A DNA stretch of 20,000 bases from an uncultured virus (IMG/VR IMGVR_UViG_3300027833_000041) (Duplodnaviria > Heunggongvirae > Uroviricota > Caudoviricetes), in IMG/VR virus record IMGVR_UViG_3300027833_000041; one strand, 5' to 3'. The notes under the pieces were generated by a model, which searched no databases, was not told the origin of the DNA, and worked only from the letters and a program-made list of their open reading frames with translations. The position numbers and the translations under genes are program-made. This document shows, one piece after another, positions 5,249-19,145 of this stretch. Positions within the stretch are counted from its first letter, which is position 1; every line of letters starts with the position of its first letter.

Positions 5249-5716
5249 ATGTACAAACAAAATCCAAAATCGCCTGTATTAAAGGCGTTAAAAGGCAATC
5301 AAGGAAAACTACCACAGCATTTACAAGATGCAATTAAAGCTGCGCCTGAATCTCCAGCTAAACAAATTGTAGGCCCAAAGCCTAAGAAAAAAATTATTCC
5401 AGGTGAGGAGCTTACAGGAAAAAAACCAAAGGCCAATAAAACTTTTAAAAAAGAGCCGCTTGGCCCATATAAGCCCGCGCCAAAATCTCCAGCAAAACAG
5501 ACAACAGCCGGCGAATTCGCTCACAAAAAGTCTTTAAAAGAAAAAGAGATGGGGAGGAGCACAAAAGTTGTAGACAAGTTTACATCAGCTCTTGAGGCAC
5601 CGTTCAGTGACAAAACATACAGTGAGCTAAAAAAAGAAAAGCGTGCTAAGCAGAAAGCTAAGTATGACGCTAAGTCTCCAGCTAAAAACTATAAAAAAGG
5701 ATATTATGGCGTTTAA
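5249..5716 (+). CDS. Basic Lys/Pro-rich protein with SPAK repeats
   Basis: 155 aa, highly basic; contains KSPVLK, ESPAKQ, KSPAKQ and KSPAKN. Confidence 0.75.
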   Translation: MYKQNPKSPVLKALKGNQGKLPQHLQDAIKAAPESPAKQIVGPKPKKKIIPGEELTGKKPKANKTFKKEPLGPYKPAPKSPAKQTTAGEFAHKKSLKEKEMGRSTKVVDKFTSALEAPFSDKTYSELKKEKRAKQKAKYDAKSPAKNYKKGYYGV

Positions 5717-6543: not shown

Positions 6544-6578
6544 AAAGGGGACCCAATTACGGATCCCCTTTATTTTTT
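6544..6578. terminator. Bidirectional rho-independent terminator between convergent blocks
   Basis: AAAGGGGA (6544-6551) pairs with TCCCCTTT (6564-6571), with an inner CC/GG pair and AATTAC loop. A T-run follows on + and an A-rich run precedes (T-rich on -). Lies between the stops at 6537 (+) and 6578 (-). Confidence 0.85.
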
Positions 6579-8296
6579 TAACCATCACAAGCAACGCAAT
6601 CATCCATTGCAGCTGCAGCTAAATCGCCCCGCAGCACTGATTCCGTCCTCGTGTAATACAAGGTTTTAACACCTTGCTTCCAAGCTTCCATATGGACTTT
6701 GTTAATCCACTTTGGTGTAGCTTCAGAAGGGAAAGCTAGATTTAAACTAACCGATTGGTCAATGTACTGCTGCCGTATTCCGGCTTGCCTTACTAATTCC
6801 AATTGGTTAATTTCTTTAAACGTTTTAAATACGTTCTTAATTGGCTCGTCCCAATCACCCATTAACAAACCATCGAGTTCTTCGATGTTCTGCACTGAGC
6901 CGCCATCGGCTAGGATTTGATTCCAAATCTTTTCAGTGTTTATTTCATTATCTTCTAAAACACTTTCAAGAACAGGGTTTCTACGTATGAAAGTACCTTT
7001 AGCACTTTGCTCTGTAAATACGTTCGCGGCCCACGGCTCAATGCCTGGAGAAACGTTCCCAGCCAGTTTACTATTACTAACGGTAGGAGCAATAGCCCTA
7101 AGATGAGTGTTACGCATCCCAGCACCGACGCACCAAAGAGGTTCACCATAGACATCGGCCAGGTCCCTTGAAGCGCGCTCGCTTTCAATCTTGATTTGAG
7201 AGAATATTTTTCTTGTTTCATATTGTGCTGATAATCCTTCAAAAGGTATGCCTCTGTCTTGCAAGTATGTATGCCAGCCTAAGACGCCAAGACCTAATGG
7301 TCTACCCTTAACTGCTGAGCGCACTGCATTTTCAAAACCACGCAAGCCTTTTGCTCGTTGTATAAATTCTTCCATAACACCATCTAAGAACCATGTAGCA
7401 TGGTAAATAAGATCAGTGCCTTTCCATTCATCGTACTTAGACAAGTTAAGCGAGCTCAAACAACATACAAAGCTGTGTGACTCGTCTGTATGCAGTGTAA
7501 TCTCACTACATATGTTTGTCATATGTACTTTTAAACCATTTGACTTATATGCTTCTGGATTGTTCTTATTAACGTTCCCTTTAAACATAATGTACGGTTC
7601 TCCAGTTGCTTTTCGCTTTCTAAGAAGTTTACTCCATCGAGTTCTTGCTTCCTTATCGCCTTGTTCAAGTCGTCGCATAAACTTATCACCAACAATTGCG
7701 CACTGATGGAGATTAAGCGATTGTCGGTTAACATCGCCCTTCGGTTCTCTGATTTCCAACCACTCTTCAAAATCAGGGTGTTCAATGTTGATGTTAACTG
7801 ATGCTGCTCCTCTTCTAACAGATCCTTGATTAGTTGCAAGGATTGTTGAGTCATAGATTTTGCAAAAAGGTACGACTCCGTCTGATGTTCCATTTCCTGT
7901 AATTTTAGCTCCGGCGGGTCTTATCATATTAATGCCAACACCCACACCGCCACCGTGTTTTGCTAGCAACATCATTTCTAAGTTCTTAGAGCCGATATCC
8001 TGGATACTATCCGCGACATCGATTCCAAAGCAACTAATCGGTAAGCCTCTATCGGTACCGGTATTTGAAAGTACAGGAGAAGCCAGGTTAAGCCAACCTT
8101 TCCATATGTAATCAAAAAATACATCAGCAAGTTCTGGTTTATATAATCTTCGTGCAACTGTTTTAGCTACACGTTCGTAAGCATCTTTGGGGGTCTCGCC
8201 TTGCAGCAAGTACCCACCAGAGATTGTTTTTCTGTATACTTCGGTATCGCCCCACTCCGGGTAGTCGGTACCTTTTACCCATTCATTATTCCACAT
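6578..8296 (-). CDS. nrdA: Class I ribonucleotide reductase alpha subunit (compact, apparently no ATP cone)
   Basis: Motifs PISCF, GGGVG, TNICSEI (N-x-C-x-E), VCCLSSLN, AIAPTVS, KTLYY (Tyr pair) and C-terminal CVAC. Confidence 0.95.
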   Translation of the reverse strand: MWNNEWVKGTDYPEWGDTEVYRKTISGGYLLQGETPKDAYERVAKTVARRLYKPELADVFFDYIWKGWLNLASPVLSNTGTDRGLPISCFGIDVADSIQDIGSKNLEMMLLAKHGGGVGVGINMIRPAGAKITGNGTSDGVVPFCKIYDSTILATNQGSVRRGAASVNINIEHPDFEEWLEIREPKGDVNRQSLNLHQCAIVGDKFMRRLEQGDKEARTRWSKLLRKRKATGEPYIMFKGNVNKNNPEAYKSNGLKVHMTNICSEITLHTDESHSFVCCLSSLNLSKYDEWKGTDLIYHATWFLDGVMEEFIQRAKGLRGFENAVRSAVKGRPLGLGVLGWHTYLQDRGIPFEGLSAQYETRKIFSQIKIESERASRDLADVYGEPLWCVGAGMRNTHLRAIAPTVSNSKLAGNVSPGIEPWAANVFTEQSAKGTFIRRNPVLESVLEDNEINTEKIWNQILADGGSVQNIEELDGLLMGDWDEPIKNVFKTFKEINQLELVRQAGIRQQYIDQSVSLNLAFPSEATPKWINKVHMEAWKQGVKTLYYTRTESVLRGDLAAAAMDDCVACDG

Positions 8297-8444
8297 TATC
8301 TAATACTTTTTTACTTAAAAATAAAGGGCTGCCATCTTTGTAGCTAATCTGCCATACGTGTTCTTTTTCAACAACAATAAGCGGTCGTCCCTTAAATAAT
8401 TTTGGGTATTTTTCTAATACGTATTCTTTTATTTTATTTTCCAT
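8286..8444 (-). CDS. Small hypothetical protein (52 aa) between nrdB and nrdA
   Basis: Manually translated as MENKIKEYVLEKYPKLFKGRPLIVVEKEHVWQISYKDGSPLFLSKKVLDNVE. Its ATG overlaps the nrdB stop (TAATG) and its end overlaps the nrdA start by 11 nt. Confidence 0.65.
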   Translation of the reverse strand: MENKIKEYVLEKYPKLFKGRPLIVVEKEHVWQISYKDGSPLFLSKKVLDNVE

Positions 8445-9412
8445 TACCATATGTCTTCAAAATCTTCCCCTTCGTTAGCTTTAGAATAGTCTGTCGGTCT
8501 AATTGCAAAGAAATCAGTATGTGTTACACCACCTGTAAGATGGTAAAACCAATCTAGTTTCTTAGCCGATCCTTCCACGAAAGGAAAATAATTACCGAGA
8601 TCAATATAGCCAAGCTCAACAAGCTTTTCATTTGTTCTCTTTTTAATAAAATTCTTTAAATCTTCAGCAGCTATGCCTTCAATATCACCAGCCTCAAACA
8701 TTTTATCTATGTAATCTTCTTCAAGCTTTACCATAGTAGCCGCGGCATTAATAACATCTTCTCGACATTGCTCCATTAATTTAGCATCTTCTTCGCACAT
8801 ATGGCGAAACAGCTGGCATCCCATTTTACTGTGCAGCGATTCATCTCTTACGCTCCACTTCATCTGCTGGCCAATACCTTTAAGCAAATTGCGTAGTTGG
8901 AAAGAATACAACACAGCAAAAGCTGAGTACAGACTAACGCCTTCCGCAAACGCGCTGAATACAGCCAGTGATTTAGCTATGCCTAACTTATCTGTACCAT
9001 CGTATGCGACTAGATTATCAAACCTAGAGGCTGTTGCGGGCTCGTGTAAGAAGGCTTCATAATCTTCTAAGCCTAACGTCTCATTGAGGTAACTATAAGC
9101 TACCGCGTGGACTGTTTCTTGTGAGCCAAACATCATAGCCATCTGCTGTATTTCGTGCTTAGGGAACCAGCCAACAACTTTTTGTGTCCAGTAATCAGAC
9201 ACAGCGCACTCTGTCTGTGCAAAACCTAAAAGTATATTACCCACTAAGTTTTTTTCAGCGGGCGTAAGCTTCTCGTTCCAGTCTTTGATGTCGCTTTGCA
9301 TTGATATTTCAGTGTGCAACCAAAATGCTTGTGCTTGTTTTAACCAACCTTCCGTGTAATATTCTGGATATTCAAAAGGCTTGTAAGCTATTCGTTCATT
9401 AAACAACCCCAT
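8444..9412 (-). CDS. nrdB: Class I ribonucleotide reductase beta subunit
   Basis: Motifs YKPFEYP, AFW, AQTE (first metal ligand), ETVH...Y, AEGVSLYSAF, VRDESLH and C-terminal TDFF...DY. Confidence 0.95.
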   Translation of the reverse strand: MGLFNERIAYKPFEYPEYYTEGWLKQAQAFWLHTEISMQSDIKDWNEKLTPAEKNLVGNILLGFAQTECAVSDYWTQKVVGWFPKHEIQQMAMMFGSQETVHAVAYSYLNETLGLEDYEAFLHEPATASRFDNLVAYDGTDKLGIAKSLAVFSAFAEGVSLYSAFAVLYSFQLRNLLKGIGQQMKWSVRDESLHSKMGCQLFRHMCEEDAKLMEQCREDVINAAATMVKLEEDYIDKMFEAGDIEGIAAEDLKNFIKKRTNEKLVELGYIDLGNYFPFVEGSAKKLDWFYHLTGGVTHTDFFAIRPTDYSKANEGEDFEDIW

Positions 9413-9558: not shown

Positions 9559-9709
9559 ATTTGTTTATTTGCTCTATTAGTTCTTTATAAATTACTCTGC
9601 CGCGTACATTCCACGACCACTTAACCCATTTTTCTATCTTTCGCTCTGCGTACTTTTTCCTGGCGACTGCTTTTGTTTCTCCAGGATCAGTTGAATTGTT
9701 TCGTCGCAT
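9542..9709 (-). CDS. Small basic hypothetical protein (55 aa)
   Basis: Manually translated as MRRNNSTDPGETKAVARKKYAERKIEKWVKWSWNVRGRVIYKELIEQINKYERKQ. Fills the 9559-9633 gap and overlaps the endonuclease 3' end by 76 nt. Confidence 0.5.
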   Translation of the reverse strand: MRRNNSTDPGETKAVARKKYAERKIEKWVKWSWNVRGRVIYKELIEQINKYERKQ

Positions 9710-10116
9710 TCTTTCTGATTTTGTGGTTTATACAATGTGAACGGCTCTAGTTTGTTTTCAGCTATATATTTTTTAAAAAGCTTCCAGCGCATCGGAAATG
9801 ATTCGTTAGCTCTACCTTTAGTTTCAATAATAAAGTGCTTGCCTACGAAATCGGGGGTGTATTTAATATTGAGGATCTTTTTATTTCCTCTATTAGTAAA
9901 TTCGCCTTTACCGTTCCCCGTCCGCTCGTAACTTTCAAATGGGAAATCAAATGCTTGTTGCAATTCGAATGTTTCTCCTTCATATAACGCTGCTATTTTG
10001 GCTTTTCTTAAAGCCATGTACATATACTTTTCTAGCCCTGAGGCAAAGTTGATACCGTCATACGATACCTTCTTTGCTCTTACAGGTCCTTTCTTTCTAC
10101 TATATTTCTTTTTCAT
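9634..10116 (-). CDS. T7 endonuclease I-like Holliday junction resolvase
   Basis: Motifs FASGLE, YTPDF and IIETKG (PD-(D/E)xK). Start re-placed to ATG 10116 (MKKKYS), just after the upstream stop at 10118. Confidence 0.85.
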   Translation of the reverse strand: MKKKYSRKKGPVRAKKVSYDGINFASGLEKYMYMALRKAKIAALYEGETFELQQAFDFPFESYERTGNGKGEFTNRGNKKILNIKYTPDFVGKHFIIETKGRANESFPMRWKLFKKYIAENKLEPFTLYKPQNQKECDETIQLILEKQKQSPGKSTQSER

Positions 10117-10117
10117 A

Positions 10118-10363
10118 TTACTCCTCGGAGCTCGTTGCTTCATATTTTTCTTTAGCTTTTTGCAAATACAAGACGGCATCCATAAGTTCTTCTTGTAAAT
10201 GATTTAGCCAAGCGAGCATCTCACTAGGGTCATCTTCGAGAGTAACACCGTATTTTTCATAGCCGACATTTGAACGGCCTACAAACTTTTGGCAGACACG
10301 ACGCACAACAGGGTCGCGAAACTGCATTGGCACAATAGTGTCGTGTGATTTTATAGGTTTCAT
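10118..10363 (-). CDS. Small phage protein, possible all-alpha NTP pyrophosphatase (MazG-like)
   Basis: RSNVGYEKYGVTL...WLNHLQEELMDAVLY; the acidic EExxD helix resembles all-alpha NTP-PPase metal-binding helices. Confidence 0.55.
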   Translation of the reverse strand: MKPIKSHDTIVPMQFRDPVVRRVCQKFVGRSNVGYEKYGVTLEDDPSEMLAWLNHLQEELMDAVLYLQKAKEKYEATSSEE

Positions 10364-11196
10364 AGTGTATTGGTTTTAGATAGTAAGTAGTCAGAAAAAG
10401 AATTATTCTCTGGCATTGTTTGTTTTACAAACGACCCGTTAACCATAGAGCCACGTCTATTAGAAATCTCATCGTAAGCAGACTCAATGCAATCTTCAAT
10501 ACGGACGCCTCCAAGGTGGGCAAGGTTGGTGAGCACAACAACGCAATCGCCAATAGCATCAATAAACTCCTCGTTATCATTCCTAAGTACAGCTTGAGCA
10601 AGTTCTCCTGCTTCTTCATATAATTTAATTAATTGTGTTTTTGTATCGCCTTTGGTATATATACCGCGCTCGTCCGCCCATCTGCGAATGTCGCCGTATA
10701 TTGTATCGCCATGGTCTTCTTTTGAGTGCACAACACTATTGTGCCGCGCTTTGTCAAATTCAAACATGGCTTTATTATAAACATAACAGCGCTCTGAATT
10801 AAAGCGTGAGGTTAGTGCGTTGTCCACAATCCACTTTGATAATTCAACGTCTAATGTAACGCGATGGCCTAATGGTGTTACCCAGCTTAAGCCTAATTCA
10901 TCCATAAGTCGCCCTTTGAGTTTGTTTAATGGCACAGGGAATGTTGTTGTTTGATCGGTAATGTTTACTCTCATTTGTTTTGGTTTAAAAAGGTTTTTGT
11001 ATAATTCAGTGTCAACTCTATAGCCGTAAGACTTTTGAAGTTCTATCTCCAACTGTGATACCTCATCGATATCTTCACCCGTAAATAGAACTTCGTATTC
11101 GTCTGGAGCGTAGCCTTGCTGCTCCGTTACTCTCTTATTAAGATCACGTGTTACGCCTATTTTTTTACCAGGTATGTGATAAATATAGTATGTCAT
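10360..11196 (-). CDS. Fusion protein: N-terminal GIY-YIG-like domain plus C-terminal MazG-like NTP pyrophosphohydrolase
   Basis: N-terminal YYIYHIPGKKIGVTRDLNKR...LEIELQ. C-terminal IRRWADERGI...QLIKLYEEAGELAQAV...FIDAIGDCVVVLTNLA...CIESAYDEISNRRG matches the MazG EExxE...DxxxD pattern. Confidence 0.8.
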   Translation of the reverse strand: MTYYIYHIPGKKIGVTRDLNKRVTEQQGYAPDEYEVLFTGEDIDEVSQLEIELQKSYGYRVDTELYKNLFKPKQMRVNITDQTTTFPVPLNKLKGRLMDELGLSWVTPLGHRVTLDVELSKWIVDNALTSRFNSERCYVYNKAMFEFDKARHNSVVHSKEDHGDTIYGDIRRWADERGIYTKGDTKTQLIKLYEEAGELAQAVLRNDNEEFIDAIGDCVVVLTNLAHLGGVRIEDCIESAYDEISNRRGSMVNGSFVKQTMPENNSFSDYLLSKTNTL

Positions 11197-11202
11197 TTTG
11201 TC

Positions 11203-12027
11203 TTATTTGCCAACCGATAGCGGTGCTGGTATTGCAGGCTTAGGATTGTAGTTTTTAATAGCTATATCGCTGAACTCCGGGATGATCACCTCGTTGTGCA
11301 TTGTGCTATACATACCCTTGGCTAGTTCTAGTTCCGGCATATGCGGCGGCTGTACTCTAGCTAAGTATATTCTAGCTTGCTCTAAGTGATCGTTGTACAA
11401 ATGGCAATCGCCAAGTTGCGCAATTAGTTTACCAGGTTTTAAATTGTTGCCTTTGGCAATCATTTCAAGTAGCAGACCGTACATTGCGATGTCATAGGGT
11501 AAACCTAGGAATACATCCGCCGAGCGTTGCTGCCACATTAAATCTAGCTCGCCATCGTTTACATACAGCTGAAAGCCGTAATGACACGGAGGCAATACCA
11601 TATCTGGCATATCCGCGGGGTTCCAAGCATTAACTATCATACGGCGTGACGTAGGGTTGTTGCGTACGTCGTCCAATACATTAAACAATTGGTCGACACC
11701 GTTAAAGTCGCGCCATTGTTTGCCATATACAGGCCCTAGAGTCTCATCAGAGCGTCCTGAGCGATCGTAATCTGCATTCCAGTATGTAACGCCGTTATCA
11801 CGAAGATATTGCATGTCAGTGCGTCCGTTTGCAATCCACAGTAACTCGTGAACAGCCATCTTGTGGTACACGCGTTTGTTGGTTAACAAGGGAAAGCCTT
11901 CACTCATGTCGTGTATTAGCATCCTGCCAAATACAGAGCGCGTACCAGTACCTGTGCGATCGTCTTTCTTCTTAGCTAATAGCAGCTCTTGGATTAACGC
12001 TTTATACTGATTTTCGATGTTTGTCAT
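11203..12027 (-). CDS. thyA: Thymidylate synthase-family enzyme with Asn177->Asp (possible dCMP methyl/hydroxymethyl-transferase)
   Basis: Motifs DRTGTGT, GFPLLTNK, ELLW, LGPVYGKQWR, SRRMIVNAWNP, LPPCH (catalytic Cys), QRSADVFLGLPYDI and GDCHLY. Start re-placed to ATG 12027 (MTNIENQY). Confidence 0.9.
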   Translation of the reverse strand: MTNIENQYKALIQELLLAKKKDDRTGTGTRSVFGRMLIHDMSEGFPLLTNKRVYHKMAVHELLWIANGRTDMQYLRDNGVTYWNADYDRSGRSDETLGPVYGKQWRDFNGVDQLFNVLDDVRNNPTSRRMIVNAWNPADMPDMVLPPCHYGFQLYVNDGELDLMWQQRSADVFLGLPYDIAMYGLLLEMIAKGNNLKPGKLIAQLGDCHLYNDHLEQARIYLARVQPPHMPELELAKGMYSTMHNEVIIPEFSDIAIKNYNPKPAIPAPLSVGK

Positions 12028-12283
12028 AATAATATTTGTAGTATTTGTAAATTTGTGGCCATAGCTCTTTAGCGTCAAACGTATTTGGGCTTCGGCTTAA
12101 GCGGCCTTGAATAATAATGTCAATATAAAAGTTCTGCGGGTTTGTTTTCACTTTATCCGCAGCTAATGGCGCAACAACTATTTTGTTTTTCAAGCACCAC
12201 ACCATTGCCTCATACTCTTCTGGTGTGCGATAATAACTGCCAAAGTTTGTTTTCTTGCCTTTAGATTTGTTACCGCTACCCAT
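12002..12283 (-). CDS. Hypothetical protein
   Basis: 93 aa, coupled to the primase-helicase stop (TAATG at 12283); overlaps the thyA-like start. Confidence 0.7.
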   Translation of the reverse strand: MGSGNKSKGKKTNFGSYYRTPEEYEAMVWCLKNKIVVAPLAADKVKTNPQNFYIDIIIQGRLSRSPNTFDAKELWPQIYKYYKYYYDKHRKSV

Positions 12284-13992
12284 TATTCCCAGGGCATTTT
12301 AGCATCGAGTAAGTCTGCAGGGTTATCTATAGACAAATAGTCACCAGAGTCTGGCTGCCATTTGAAATGCGCCTCCGCGCCATTCTCCCCAAGGTTTTGA
12401 AACTTAACCTTGAGCACTTTAGCTTTAACGGTCTTTGCTTCATAGTCTCTATGAATAAGCAAACCGTGGTAAGAGGCATCGTACCACTCACCACCACCTT
12501 TAATATTGTACATAGTTGGCTCCTCAATCTTACCATTTGCATCCTTATACATTTTAGTAGGGTGCGCAACAACAATAACAAGCACGTCGTACTTTTTAGC
12601 AAACGTTTCTATTTTCTGCAGATACTCAAGAGTATATACATTAACATCACCTGACTGGTCGTTCGATCTTACTTTATTAAACGGGTCAATAACCAAGCAC
12701 TTAATCCCTTTGCGCTTTACTAGCTCAGCACCTTTCTTTAACACTGCTTCAAGCGTGTAGCGCTCCATATCTATATGGAAGAAGTTAGTATTGCAGTGAT
12801 CGGCTATTTGGTTCCATCTATCGCTGTATATATCAGCAGCGGTTGGCATTCCACCCCAGCATTTACGCATTAGCTTGTGAGCATGCAAATACGTCGGTTG
12901 GTTTTCTGGTGAGGCAAATGCTGTTTTCCATTCATAATTGCGGTTGTAACCAACAACCATTCGGTCTACAAAATCTGACTTGCCACTGGAAGGTATGCCC
13001 GTAACAGTAATAAACTGCCCAGTGTAAGTGCTGAAGATATCATCGAAGTTGCTAAGGCCAACTTGAAAACCGGGCTTGAAGCCATTGCGAACGAAGTCCG
13101 TGATTTCGTCTTCGATGTCACGGAAGGTTGTGACGTTTTCAAGCGGAACGGGCTTTGCATTCGTAATTCTAGATACGAGTTTTTCTGGTCCATGCTTTAT
13201 TAAATATTCATTAGCGTCCTTACAATCGTCAAACGTAGCTAAAAAACAAACTTCAGAGCCTAATCTACGAATAAGCTCGGTTTGTAGTGCAATTCCTGCT
13301 TCGTCTGAGTCGGTAGCAAGTATGATTTTCTCCTTATCTTCGAAGTAATCAATACAAGCATCTAAGTAATCTAAATTGTTAGTATTAAGTGTAGCGCCAT
13401 TAGGCACTGATATTACATTGCTAATACCAGCTTCGTGCAACGCTAACACATCCATTTCTCCTTCTACAAGGATACAATACTCGTAACCTACAATACTATC
13501 TATATTGTAAAATACTTTCTCAGCACCCTTATATAATTTAAAGTTCTTTCTCCCATCACGATACTTAACATTGATTAAGTCGTCGCCCATGAAATAATTG
13601 AACTTTATAACATTCTCGGCTTTACCGGTCTGTGGCATATATTCACTGCCTTCAGTAACACGTAGCTCGTGTAACGTTTTGCGGGATATACCCCTTGTCT
13701 TAAACCACTCTTCTACTTTCGTACCAACCTCCTGAACAACAAAGGTTTCAGGTTTGACATATGTCTTTTCTGATTTGCCTTTGCGTTCATAGGTGTGTAA
13801 CTGAAATGATTTATCACAGTTGTGACAAGTACCGAGACCACGTTCCCAATCATAAGAAGCGCATTTTTGCTTCTGATTTTCAGGTTTTCTTGTAGAAGAA
13901 CACAGAGGACAAGTCCCCTGCGTTTTACCTTCATCAAGACCATGTTGATTGAACGTGTCAATCACAAATCCATTGATCTCTACTGTCTGCAT
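12283..13992 (-). CDS. T7 gp4/Twinkle-like DNA primase-helicase
   Basis: Zn finger CPLC...CHNC; TOPRIM motifs VEGEMD, SVPNGA, DSDEAG, KDANE; SF4 helicase Walker A TGIPSSGKS, LVIDP, VVAHP. Confidence 0.95.
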   Translation of the reverse strand: MQTVEINGFVIDTFNQHGLDEGKTQGTCPLCSSTRKPENQKQKCASYDWERGLGTCHNCDKSFQLHTYERKGKSEKTYVKPETFVVQEVGTKVEEWFKTRGISRKTLHELRVTEGSEYMPQTGKAENVIKFNYFMGDDLINVKYRDGRKNFKLYKGAEKVFYNIDSIVGYEYCILVEGEMDVLALHEAGISNVISVPNGATLNTNNLDYLDACIDYFEDKEKIILATDSDEAGIALQTELIRRLGSEVCFLATFDDCKDANEYLIKHGPEKLVSRITNAKPVPLENVTTFRDIEDEITDFVRNGFKPGFQVGLSNFDDIFSTYTGQFITVTGIPSSGKSDFVDRMVVGYNRNYEWKTAFASPENQPTYLHAHKLMRKCWGGMPTAADIYSDRWNQIADHCNTNFFHIDMERYTLEAVLKKGAELVKRKGIKCLVIDPFNKVRSNDQSGDVNVYTLEYLQKIETFAKKYDVLVIVVAHPTKMYKDANGKIEEPTMYNIKGGGEWYDASYHGLLIHRDYEAKTVKAKVLKVKFQNLGENGAEAHFKWQPDSGDYLSIDNPADLLDAKMPWE

Positions 13993-17155: not shown

Positions 17156-17275
17156 TTATAAGCTACCGTCGCGTTCTTCCGAACCCAAGGTGGCATATAT
17201 AACTTGATCATCATTATTTTGAGCAAGCTCGTTCATTACTTTAATTAGGTATTGGTTACATACAGCTGTTGGCAT
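17156..17275 (-). CDS. Possible micro-ORF (39 aa)
   Basis: MPTAVCNQYLIKVMNELAQNNDDQVIYATLGSEERDGSL; fills the gap, with an alternative ATG at 17236. Confidence 0.35.
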   Translation of the reverse strand: MPTAVCNQYLIKVMNELAQNNDDQVIYATLGSEERDGSL

Positions 17276-17732
17276 ATCTAGTTATTTTAGTTTCGTTAGC
17301 ATTAGCTACGGTATGCTTTTCAGCTTCGTAGTAGTTCCAGTAAGCGTCAACCGAGCATTCTGATTTGTATTCATCAGGCATGCATTGTGGCGGCTGTTGC
17401 CATTCTTGAGATGGAATGCCAGGCGGCAAATCCATTAGCGTGTTGTAGCACTTTTCAATTGTCAAGTGCTTCTTACCATAGCGCCGCGTGTACTCGTTTC
17501 CGAGTGCAATCATATGTTCATATAACCAAAGGTAAGCGAGGTCGTTAGAGCGCGCCCAAATGGCCGAGGGATGGTTTTTATGAGTTGCTTTGTACGGCAC
17601 ATCATGGTTACCCAACTCGTGGTGCGCTGTGCATAACAATTGTGCAGACTCAAGAATCATCTTGACTACGTGTTTGTTGTATTGCACTCGCGCAGCTTCA
17701 TCGGGATCGTGGCTTAGGTAAAATATATTCAT
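17256..17732 (-). CDS. Pyrimidine-dimer DNA glycosylase (DenV)-like protein
   Basis: MNIFYL..DP..AA....KHVVKMILESAQLL, HKNHPSAIW and EYTRRYGKKH, recalled as typical of a phage family usually annotated this way. Confidence 0.7.
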   Translation of the reverse strand: MNIFYLSHDPDEAARVQYNKHVVKMILESAQLLCTAHHELGNHDVPYKATHKNHPSAIWARSNDLAYLWLYEHMIALGNEYTRRYGKKHLTIEKCYNTLMDLPPGIPSQEWQQPPQCMPDEYKSECSVDAYWNYYEAEKHTVANANETKITRYANSCM

Positions 17733-18012: not shown

Positions 18013-18298
18013 GCGCTAAACTTTTTTGTACCATGAAAGCTTTTTCTAAAATGCCTACTTGTACTTGGTTAAAGAATTCGTATACGCGATCGTGTACTTC
18101 CTCCATCATAATGTCCATTACTTCGTCATATTCATTATCGGTATGACCAAGCATGTTTACGTCAAAATTGTCCTCAATCCAGTTGTGCATTTCGTCTACG
18201 TCGCTAAAGAACACACCCGCTTTTAAGGCTTCCTCAATAACTTCAGACGCACCTTTGCGTACCAGTTGATCTTTGATTTGTGTTGAATTCTTATTCAT
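17996..18298 (-). CDS. Hypothetical acidic protein (100 aa)
   Basis: Start re-placed to ATG 18298 (MNKNSTQIKDQ), overlapping the ligase end by 8 nt. The upstream 130 codons of the track ORF lie inside the ligase gene. Confidence 0.7.
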   Translation of the reverse strand: MNKNSTQIKDQLVRKGASEVIEEALKAGVFFSDVDEMHNWIEDNFDVNMLGHTDNEYDEVMDIMMEEVHDRVYEFFNQVQVGILEKAFMVQKSLAHDTDL

Positions 18299-19145
18299 AG
18301 TTTCTAATTGCTTTAAATTGTGGGTGACGGTAGCTATTTGCTTTAGTACGCTCGAAGTAAGTGAACGTAGCTTGCTTGCCGATATAATCGTTAATGTTTT
18401 CAAGGATTTCTTTAAGCGCAATGTGGTTGAAGCCTTTACCGGGAGGGCAGCCGAATTCAATACCTGCTTCGTCGCGCATGATAAACTTGCCGAGCGTACC
18501 GGTGCGTTTGCCTTTGCCTTCGACATAATCAATAATCGTCGCTTCCTTATCGCTGAAGTCTTTGAACTTCTGCAAGTTGTACGAGCGTTTACACTCATAA
18601 ACTTTATTAAGGCGGATGATAGAGCCTTCGAAGCCGCCGCCGAGGTTAGCGTCGTGTATAGCACGGGCTTTGTCGAGTGAATCAACACGCATGGTTACGA
18701 GTGGAAACACGTGGTGTGGATCCGCATAAGGGAAGAAGTCACGTAGTAATTCATGGATAAACTTACTGCGATCGATAAACAAGATGTCGTTATCGTCGTC
18801 AATAATGTCGTACCAGTGAAATTGTACTAACGATTTGGCTTCGAGGCGGTCGTCATCAGTAGGCTTTTGCTTTCTGACGAGCGAAATGATTTTCTCGAAA
18901 TCGTTTTTGAGGGCGTGGTTGTATAGTTCGCCGTCAAGGATAAGATTTGGGTAGTCATGGAATAGCGGTTGTAATTCATCTTCAATGTGTTTGACGTTCA
19001 TAAATTGTTTACCGGTACGTGAGAACGCGCCGTCTTTAGTAAATAGACAACGTACGCCGTCAAGCTTTGGTTGAATATACACTTGCTCTGAAAAATCGAT
19101 CGGTTTGATACCTGCTTTGTACGCGAGCATGGGTTTGATATTCAT
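18291..19145 (-). CDS. ATP-dependent DNA ligase (minimal phage type)
   Basis: Motif I QPKLDGVR (adenylated Lys), III LDGELY, IIIa FHWYDI, IV FEGSIIR, V LQKFK, VI YRHPQF. Confidence 0.93.
   Translation of the reverse strand: MNIKPMLAYKAGIKPIDFSEQVYIQPKLDGVRCLFTKDGAFSRTGKQFMNVKHIEDELQPLFHDYPNLILDGELYNHALKNDFEKIISLVRKQKPTDDDRLEAKSLVQFHWYDIIDDDNDILFIDRSKFIHELLRDFFPYADPHHVFPLVTMRVDSLDKARAIHDANLGGGFEGSIIRLNKVYECKRSYNLQKFKDFSDKEATIIDYVEGKGKRTGTLGKFIMRDEAGIEFGCPPGKGFNHIALKEILENINDYIGKQATFTYFERTKANSYRHPQFKAIRNYE

Follow-up and report, generated by a model that had tools for sequence, protein, structure and literature searches.

Two described systems stand close to the locus analyzed here. Phage T4 makes a modified dCMP with the hydroxymethylase gp42, removes dCTP with gp56, the T4 dCTPase, and has a kinase in gp1. 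Its GIY-YIG nuclease EndoII (DenA) attacks unmodified DNA (PMC1564403). The second is the 5-methyl-dCMP synthase cluster of Xanthomonas phage Xp12 and Pseudomonas phage PaMx74, together with the modified contigs of MetaGPA. There a ThyA homologue reading GLPYD adjoins a predicted all-alpha nucleoside triphosphate (NTP) pyrophosphatase, and the product is 5-methylcytosine (5mC). Here we analyze positions 10118-12027 of a 20,000-nucleotide stretch of DNA, called the window below, from an uncultured virus (IMG/VR record IMGVR_UViG_3300027833_000041). The full record is linear and 66,454 bases long, with a CheckV completeness of 100%, and the window is its final 20 kb. A first-pass annotation had seen in it a cytosine-replacement module of three genes, for a dCMP-type thymidylate synthase (TS), a GIY-YIG/MazG fusion and a second MazG-like protein. 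We arrive at a unit of two genes, TS and fusion, which likely puts 5mC in place of C in the phage DNA and so blocks many restriction enzymes, to judge from sequence. The proposed cassette works like the Xp12 and T4 replacement pathways, yet it is neither the Xp12 cluster nor gp42. The two genes and their parts are as follows.

11203..12027, minus strand: TS homologue, ThyA-derived, predicted dCMP C5-methyltransferase (PF00303, E 4.9e-86; alignment to solved ThyA; motifs and tree)
11197-11202: 6-nt gap between the TS and fusion genes
10360-11196, minus strand: GIY-YIG/MazG fusion, 278 aa
10999..11196, minus strand: fusion residues 1-66, T5orf172-type GIY-YIG nuclease domain (PF10544 above cut-off)
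10744..10977, minus strand: fusion residues 74-151, conserved alpha/beta domain without known family (AlphaFold secondary structure)
10360..10707, minus strand: fusion residues 164 to the end, all-alpha NTP pyrophosphatase of the MazG/HisE superfamily, predicted dCTPase (PF03819, PF01503; fold)

The TS homologue was taken as 274 aa from the ATG at 12027; the TTG start chosen by the open reading frame (ORF) finder (12078) falls within the upstream gene. The protein is 45-50% identical to ThyA and keeps its catalytic core. By motif mapping C148, R24, E61, W83, Y101, R128, R129, R168, S169, D171, H209 and Y211 are all present, matching the E. coli ThyA core (C146, R21, E58, W80, Y94, R126, R127, R166, S167, D169, H207 and Y209). 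Where ThyA has G-x-P-F-N, it reads G175-L-P-Y-D179, and the canonical Asn177 of the E. coli enzyme is thus replaced by Asp179. The other telling positions are Leu145, Cys148, His149 and Asp171 (L143, C146, H147 and D169 in E. coli number). The change of Asn to Asp (N177D) switches ThyA to dCMP, and the Asp marks contigs selected for modified C (PMC8670742). In E. coli supplied with the T4 kinase gp1, five of seven Asp-type TS gave 5-methyldeoxycytidine (5mdC; bioRxiv 2024.12.05.627091). As to the product, L143 goes with methyl products, D/E143 with hydroxymethyl products and D169N with hydroxylation (PMC13326640). The enzyme lacks the signature of the T4 gp42-type hydroxymethylases, acidic at 143 and non-His at 147 (it has L145 and H149), and the D169N mark of 5-hydroxy-dCMP synthases (D171 is retained). 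Leu145 and Asp171 therefore predict 5-methyl-dCMP (5m-dCMP), not a hydroxymethyl nucleotide. That the TS would methylate dCMP to 5m-dCMP, the second step of the proposed pathway, is to us very probable, given Asp at 177 and Leu at 143.

Two points weigh against this assignment: at position 147, which like 177 differed between modified and unmodified contigs in MetaGPA (PMC8670742), the enzyme keeps the His of canonical ThyA (His149), and, in the published E. coli tests, two of the seven Asp-type TS made no 5mdC (bioRxiv 2024.12.05.627091). The enzyme might then be an ordinary dUMP-methylating thymidylate synthase that tolerates Asp, in other words a metabolic gene. Its identity to ThyA, a score above the TIGR03284 cut-off, the retained His147 and a full C-terminus would fit. 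Asp is, however, fixed in all 95 viral loci with ThyA-like enzymes in this position (type A, below), whereas Asn is found in 77 of the 80 best cellular-genome matches of the TS. The remaining three, with Asp, are short contigs in Bacteroidota metagenome-assembled genomes, and one of them (L321) has the phage gene order. The mutagenesis of N177D to a dCMP enzyme (PMC8670742) and the interchange of this gene with a gp42-like enzyme, described below, also go against an ordinary TS, which we regard as very improbable.

In a FastTree tree of 60 rows this TS falls in a main clade that joins cellular Asn-type ThyA (support 0.99), and a second, small ThyA-like subclade (PPCY) branches separately. Since the TS stands apart from that of Xp12 and beside cellular Asn-type ThyA, the switch to Asp was likely an independent one.

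The two genes go together across relatives. Viral loci were gathered by three routes: 33 through the fusion, 80 through each of three primases (these sets overlap), and 80 through the TS, a query biased towards type A. The loci compared run from the primase to the DUF1064 gene, and in the window the genes around the pair are these.

12283..13992, minus strand: primase-helicase, upstream flank and synteny anchor
12002..12283, minus strand: 93-aa conserved ORF between primase and TS, which stays where TS and fusion are lost
10360-10363: ATGA overlap of the fusion and the 81-aa ORF
10118..10363, minus strand: 81-aa two-helix protein, family unknown, a neighbour and not a member of the module
9634..10179, minus strand: DUF1064/resolvase-like nuclease, downstream flank
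8444-9412, minus strand: nrdB
6578-8296, minus strand: nrdA (with nrdB a class Ia ribonucleotide reductase)

Of 273 loci spanning this interval, 205 remained once duplicates with identical primase ends had been taken out. Among these 205, TS and fusion occur together in 199, neither is there in 6, and no locus has just one of the two. Residue 177 is Asp in 197 of 197 readable viral loci (L236 and L079 were unreadable by pattern). In 80 metagenome loci anchored on the fusion the motif was seen in 70, always with Asp; in the other 10 the upstream DNA is too short, and four pattern matches that lay off target were set aside. Thus, neither the 197 viral nor the 70 metagenome loci have an Asn-type TS beside the fusion, and with Asp179 this co-occurrence upholds the dCMP type given to the enzyme at first pass. 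A complete genome, G001, has no TS and no fusion anywhere. At another locus, L217, a serine resolvase gene and a 391-aa ORF fill the slot (L217:4123-5981), while L214, with a primase 92% identical, has both genes; the loss in L217 is probably recent. Protein clusters with the fusion number at least 8000, and the metagenome stretches that carry it were estimated at 5700.

The 81-aa gene follows a different pattern. It is kept in 6 of 6 TS-less loci, missing from 5 of the 199 TS-bearing loci and moved in others. As its presence is uncoupled from that of TS and fusion, the unit is one of two genes, and the three-gene module of the first-pass annotation shrinks accordingly. The protein might still be a second pyrophosphatase needed by the pathway: its gene is usually adjacent, the acidic motif QEE-x-x-D is invariant and lies on a helix, and one distant phage homologue is annotated ntP-ppase. 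The gene's distribution goes against this, as does the poor profile match to the fusion's MazG domain (hhalign probability 1.65%); a kinship with Nmad1/DUF1599 was rejected likewise (0.15%). Homologues also occur in unrelated phages (199-226 phage records, including Lillamyvirus, Elemovirus, Nipunavirus and relatives of phage 73), and in three such regions around them no Asp-type TS was annotated. The invariant residues (G-x-x-KY and QEE-x-x-D-x-x-x-Y) hold a single acidic motif. Modelled as a monomer, the protein forms a two-helix hairpin, for which the PDB offered nothing at Z>=5. None of 37 homologues reached the cut-off of a Pfam family, no NCBIfam family matched, and searches of PDB and viral folds gave coiled coils and uncharacterised homologues only. 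The label of a second MazG-like protein thus has no database support (Pfam, hhalign, PDB), and such a role in the pathway is unlikely. The protein may bind metal or nucleotides, and the proposed pathway does not need it.

A DNA ligase was tried as a module part and rejected: of 45 type A loci that reach far enough upstream, 31 lack it. Its gene in the window (ATP-dependent, 18291-19145) and a pyrimidine-dimer-glycosylase-like gene (17256-17732) are patchy in relatives and uncoupled from the TS.

The strongest sequence argument for a role in cytosine modification is what else occupies the TS slot. In the 95 type A loci the enzymes are ThyA-like (L-P-P-C-H/Y ... P-Y-D) and fall into two subclades. 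In the other 104 loci (type B) the enzyme is short, reads D-T-P-C-T ... F-C-N/I-D where legible, and finds its best PDB matches in the MilA CMP hydroxymethylase and the T4 dCMP hydroxymethylase; it carries the gp42-type signature, acidic at 143 and non-His at 147. The slot thus appears to alternate between methylase-type (ThyA-derived) and hydroxymethylase-type (gp42-like) enzymes, which are about 25% identical to each other and share cytosine specificity. On the primase tree (129 rows, thinned from 180) the type switches 21 times, against a shuffled mean of 46. The fusion tree also has 21 changes, and the equal counts imply that the TS is exchanged while the fusion follows the backbone. The same equality can be held against a partnership of the two proteins, as the fusion tracks the TS type no better than the primase does (21 vs. 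21). No residues specific for TS type were found in the fusion at 70% thresholds, nor any co-phylogeny beyond that of the backbone.

Several observations were made on genes near the swapped enzymes. Among isolates, the type B enzyme has its nearest homologue (46%) in cultured Bacteroides fragilis phages (L496, Bacteroides phage BF503P2, 3109-6669); BF503P2 has two annotated dCMP hydroxymethylase genes with no annotated kinase nearby and is a possible test system for a host kinase. A block after nrdA in L264:8100-11987 (G005), L008, L012 and L024 encodes JmjC, cupin, KdsB-like and KdsA-like proteins, a glycosyltransferase-like ORF and GT29. As a hypermodifier of 5-hydroxymethylcytosine (5hmC) this sugar-enzyme block (KdsA, KdsB, GT29, JmjC) was rejected, as it occurs in 11-12 of 90 type B loci and, in part, in 6 of 63 type A loci; found in a minority of both types, it perhaps serves surface-glycan synthesis. 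A small DUF1599/Nmad1-like gene (L008:1713-2021; weak Pfam match, E 0.01) occurs in type B loci only (10 sequences). A single ribonucleotide reductase of about 620 aa, without nrdB, takes the same position in 13 deduplicated loci (e.g., L005, L109 and L122), and L193:1035-2844 (G000 21035-22844) has phage-borne GroEL and GroES genes.

A phage with modified C need not avoid the sites of C-sensitive restriction enzymes. We therefore compared site counts, given as observed/expected (five of the genome records were covered for the first 58-60 kb). The TS-less G001 (32% GC) avoids several sites: GGCC 0/16, CCWGG 1/48, GCGC 2/13, AGTACT 0/18 and CATATG 0/14. None of eight TS-bearing genomes is depleted for the first four, and one (G062) is for CATATG. 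The window's own genome has GGCC 76/106, GCGC 162/182 and CGCG 132/140, with CCWGG present 64 times. GGCC is 21/22 in the genome G059 (30% GC), whose primase (locus L201) falls within the TS-less clade. GGCC is absent from none of 177 TS-bearing loci and from three of four TS-less ones. Stretches of two cultured Flavobacterium phages have GGCC 0/9 and 0/4, with GATC and CTAG avoided too. The joint loss of the two genes and the site avoidance in an old lineage that lost both bear out the annotation's central idea, cytosine replacement by an Asp-type TS acting with the fusion. Leu at 143 refines the predicted product to 5mC rather than 5hmC.

The match of site avoidance to enzyme sensitivities is partial. 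Both 5mC and 5hmC in the DNA block HaeIII, HhaI, BstUI and AvaII, EcoRV (GATATC) cuts 5hmC DNA, KpnI cuts 5mC DNA, and Xp12 is without GATATC or ATGCAT sites (Flodman et al., PMC7653180). The pooled TS-bearing loci avoid GATATC (0.41 in type A, where it is the most avoided word, and 0.37 in type B), ATGCAT (0.47 in A, 0.60 in B) and GGTACC (0.54 in A, 0.28 in B). Several counts do not fit. GACGTC is 0/10 in the window's genome though 5mC blocks AatII, type B loci avoid GGTACC more strongly than type A loci despite the block of KpnI by 5hmC, and CATATG is not avoided in the pooled loci though NdeI cuts 5hmC DNA; NsiI is blocked on 5hmC, and BstNI (CCWGG) cuts Xp12 DNA (all sensitivities from PMC7653180). 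GGCC is mildly low (0.74-0.77) in TS-bearing loci, and the second TS-less lineage, L217, shows no avoidance, which we read as recent loss. The control is in effect one old TS-less lineage, and host differences could contribute. At one further locus, L110, three DNA methyltransferase genes and a PAPS-reductase-like gene lie upstream of the primase, with strong avoidance of GATC, CATG and CTAG; no TS directly follows the 93-aa ORF, and the contig ends soon after.

The swapping and the restriction sites bear on another reading, that the TS product is a detour to dTMP: a host deaminase would convert 5m-dCMP, the DNA would keep its C, and the MazG domain would clean the pool. Deamination of 5m-dCMP or 5m-dCTP to thymidylate has been proposed for Xp12-type phages (bioRxiv 2024.12.05.627091), and this genome has no other TS and no kinase, with the cassette adjoining nrdAB. 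A detour would leave unexplained both the swapping with a hydroxymethylase in the same slot and the missing avoidance of GGCC, CCWGG and GCGC in TS-bearing genomes, and no deaminase motif was found in nine genomes. We consider it unlikely and keep to replacement of C by 5mC.

In the first step of that replacement, the MazG domain of the fusion would hydrolyze dCTP to dCMP and pyrophosphate, thereby removing the normal precursor and feeding the TS. The fusion scores 29.5 bits for MazG (PF03819; cut-off 22) and 29.4 bits for PRA-PH (PF01503; cut-off 21.3). The fold aligns with 1vmg (Z 9.6, rmsd 2.8, 80 aligned) and ties with HisE, MazZ and other MazG chains. K191, E194, E195, E198, D213, D217 and R247 are invariant, and the metal ligands EExxE ... 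D-x-x-x-D are present; the fold and acidic metal-binding helices of the C-domain are those of DCTPP1/RS21-C6, MazG, S-2L MazZ and HisE. Two points count against a dCTPase. The domain belongs to a generic MazG subfamily matched by 1037 phage records, mostly of Streptococcus and Staphylococcus phages, and the fold ties among MazG, HisE, MazZ and DCTPP1 mean that substrate cannot be assigned from structure. In addition, DCTPP1 acts on 5-methyl-dCTP (5m-dCTP), which the fusion's enzyme would have to spare (PMC4491611). The dCTPase role comes from context: the co-loss with the TS, the co-occurrence of PRA-PH and TS on modified contigs (PMC8670742) and Xp12's neighbouring gene. By this analogy dCTP is probably the substrate.

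The nuclease domain matches T5orf172, a family of the GIY-YIG clan, at residues 5-59 (PF10544, 21.5 bits, cut-off 20), and Atlas clusters carry T5orf172 too. With T5orf172, MazG and PRA-PH profiles all above cut-off, the GIY-YIG/MazG fusion of the first-pass annotation holds; its AlphaFold model has three separate domains (pLDDT 83.8, pTM 0.38). GIY-YIG motif elements are present (Y-I-Y6 ... K12-I-G14, R22 and E50, the last two presumably the catalytic Arg and Glu), and none of 197 fusions departs from Y6, H7, K12, G14, R22, E50, Q54, Y59 or D62. This is also the best conserved part of the protein (72% mean identity vs. 67% for the MazG domain and 54% for the middle domain). Against an active nuclease, the Tyr of the YIG motif is replaced by Lys. 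A profile search with the domain matched no solved GIY-YIG protein, and fold searches with the whole fusion were filled by MazG-domain matches. Among the best 150 of 1108 hits of the nuclease profile, 48 run on into other fusion domains, 43 end shortly after and 59 have different tails, many apparently truncated or chimeric. An I-HmuI NUMOD-like domain was seen in six of 14 hand-picked homing-endonuclease-like proteins, and NUMOD3 in L033. Nearest free-standing relatives with NUMOD tails and invariant residues together suggest that the domain came from a homing endonuclease and is kept under selection; it is likely an active nuclease so recruited. The middle domain (74-151) sits where related homing endonucleases have a DNA-binding tail. 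We infer that it binds DNA; a PDB profile search with it gave no hit.

In the fifth step, the nuclease would cut DNA with unmodified C, of the host or a rival phage, and the nucleotides would be recycled to the attached pyrophosphatase. We offer this tentatively. An EndoII-like role fits the co-loss of the fusion with the TS; the tie to EndoII (DenA) drawn at first pass was not detected in sequence, the nearest relatives being homing endonucleases. With equal hesitation one may let replacement of C stand and take the domain for a site-specific homing-type nuclease, acting selfishly or in rival exclusion, or for a non-catalytic passenger. The free-standing relatives with NUMOD tails, the exchange that the adjacent TS often undergoes and L068, where the fusion's domains are two ORFs, would suit this. 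Homing endonucleases are patchily distributed, whereas this nuclease is in 199 of 199 TS-bearing loci, with its predicted catalytic residues invariant and no decay, and is lost together with the TS. The T4 Seg and T5orf172/NUMOD homing enzymes share its catalytic-domain family; here the domain is fixed in a lineage, forms one protein with an enzyme, and has a domain without known family in place of the NUMOD tail. T4 itself has a GIY-YIG homing endonuclease, SegF, which is encoded at soc/56 and has gene 56 as its target (PMC2988022). That the domain acts as SegF does, next to the gene for a dCTPase, is about as likely as an EndoII-like role.

The remaining steps seem to be left to the host. 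A kinase, a deaminase, a polymerase, a DNA glycosyltransferase and DHFR were not found by Pfam in 66 ORFs of the genome (several large structural and some small ORFs were outside the scan). Searches with PF02223 and PF02224 gave no kinase in the genome. In P-loop and deaminase motif scans of nine genomes (this and eight relatives) the only credible P-loop was the helicase's. As the record is linear, a small missing piece is still possible. The first-pass annotation was right that the window has no deoxynucleoside monophosphate kinase or polymerase, and widening the search to the genome, for a glycosyltransferase as well, found none; host enzymes probably serve. The lack of a kinase also weighs against the proposal, since the published E. 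coli tests supplied T4 gp1 (bioRxiv 2024.12.05.627091). In the third step a host kinase would phosphorylate 5m-dCMP, and in the fourth the host replicative polymerase would incorporate 5m-dCTP, given that no phage polymerase was found. E. coli host polymerase did incorporate C5-modified dCTP (bioRxiv 2024.12.05.627091).

As to the host, the major capsid protein matches 85 phage records, 84 of which are of Flavobacterium, Cellulophaga or Maribacter phages. Among the runs that best cover the stretch, those with a label come from marine or seawater metagenomes. Contigs of the DNA run X1 are identical (0 differing letters) over 10054-11048 and 11019-12511, and X1 may be the source sample. The likely host order is that of Salibacter halophilus, presumably Flavobacteriales. 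Tmk (TIGR00041) is in none of 49 genomes of this order and Cmk is in 47 of 49. Bacteroides thetaiotaomicron is the sole one of 14 controls without PF02223, and a strong match in Neolewinella means that the absence of Tmk is not phylum-wide. Hosts without Tmk must phosphorylate dTMP by another enzyme, and this enzyme, possibly Cmk, is our candidate for the third step, a speculation that we put forward with reserve. No report of a Bacteroidota dTMP kinase was found in the literature searched. A bifunctional Cmk has reportedly been described.

The three neighbouring genes are co-oriented on the minus strand, with the 6-nt gap, the ATGA overlap and nrdAB nearby, all as first annotated. The leftward block runs primase-helicase, 93-aa ORF, TS, fusion, 81-aa ORF, DUF1064 nuclease, nrdB, nrdA, with nrdB and nrdA starting about 0.7 kb downstream of the three genes. 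Since the whole block is packed alike, the tight packing is not special. The nrdAB genes are likely in the same transcription block as the cassette. A strong terminator-like hairpin lies at 6544-6571, after nrdA, where leftward and rightward gene blocks meet. A promoter scan was at chance level (20 vs. 22.4), and two RNA-labelled runs, as contigs only, cover the stretch with flat, DNA-like depth.

Compared with Xp12, which has dCMP deaminase, DHFR and DNA polymerase I alongside its TS, this genome has none that we found, and no GIY-YIG domain is evident on Xp12's pyrophosphatase. The 'HAD hydrolase' by the Xp12 TS (L400:21208-21981) reads by eye as an all-alpha pyrophosphatase plus an Nmad1-like domain, with weak hhalign support. 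The resemblance to T4 (gp42, gp56, gp1 and EndoII) lies in the synthesis of a modified dCMP, the removal of dCTP and possibly a GIY-YIG nuclease against unmodified DNA (PMC1564403), and about half of the relatives hold a gp42/MilA-like enzyme in the TS slot. In contrast to T4, the window has a methylase-type enzyme, its pyrophosphatase and nuclease are one polypeptide, and searches of the genome turned up neither a kinase nor a polymerase nor a DNA glucosyltransferase. The core chemistry is not new; here it would proceed without a recognisable phage kinase or polymerase. Our own tests contribute the limit of the unit to two genes, the swapping of its enzymes, the contrast in restriction sites, a likely origin of the nuclease from a homing endonuclease and the Tmk lead. 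We found no report of the cassette in this phage group, in a search that covered subscription journals thinly.

In closing, we venture a wider picture, rather doubtful as a whole. In abundant marine Bacteroidota phages, a domesticated homing endonuclease fused to a dCTPase would destroy DNA with unmodified C and clear dCTP, while synthases for 5mC and 5hmC would be swapped like a cartridge; no phage kinase would be needed, as the kinase of Tmk-less hosts would accept 5-substituted pyrimidines. Abundant marine Flavobacteriaceae virus groups have been described (PMC7198788). Judging by the numbers of fusion clusters and metagenome stretches, a common marine phage group may carry C-modified DNA as the norm. 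If true, this bears on flavobacterial restriction at sea and on bias in enzyme-based virome protocols. A nuclease sparing both 5mC and 5hmC, if that is what it does, would be a useful reagent. The missing kinase also touches the question of how Tmk-less Bacteroidota phosphorylate dTMP. Finally, as these phages exchange methylase and hydroxymethylase naturally while the backbone stays the same, the benefit of each base can be tested directly.

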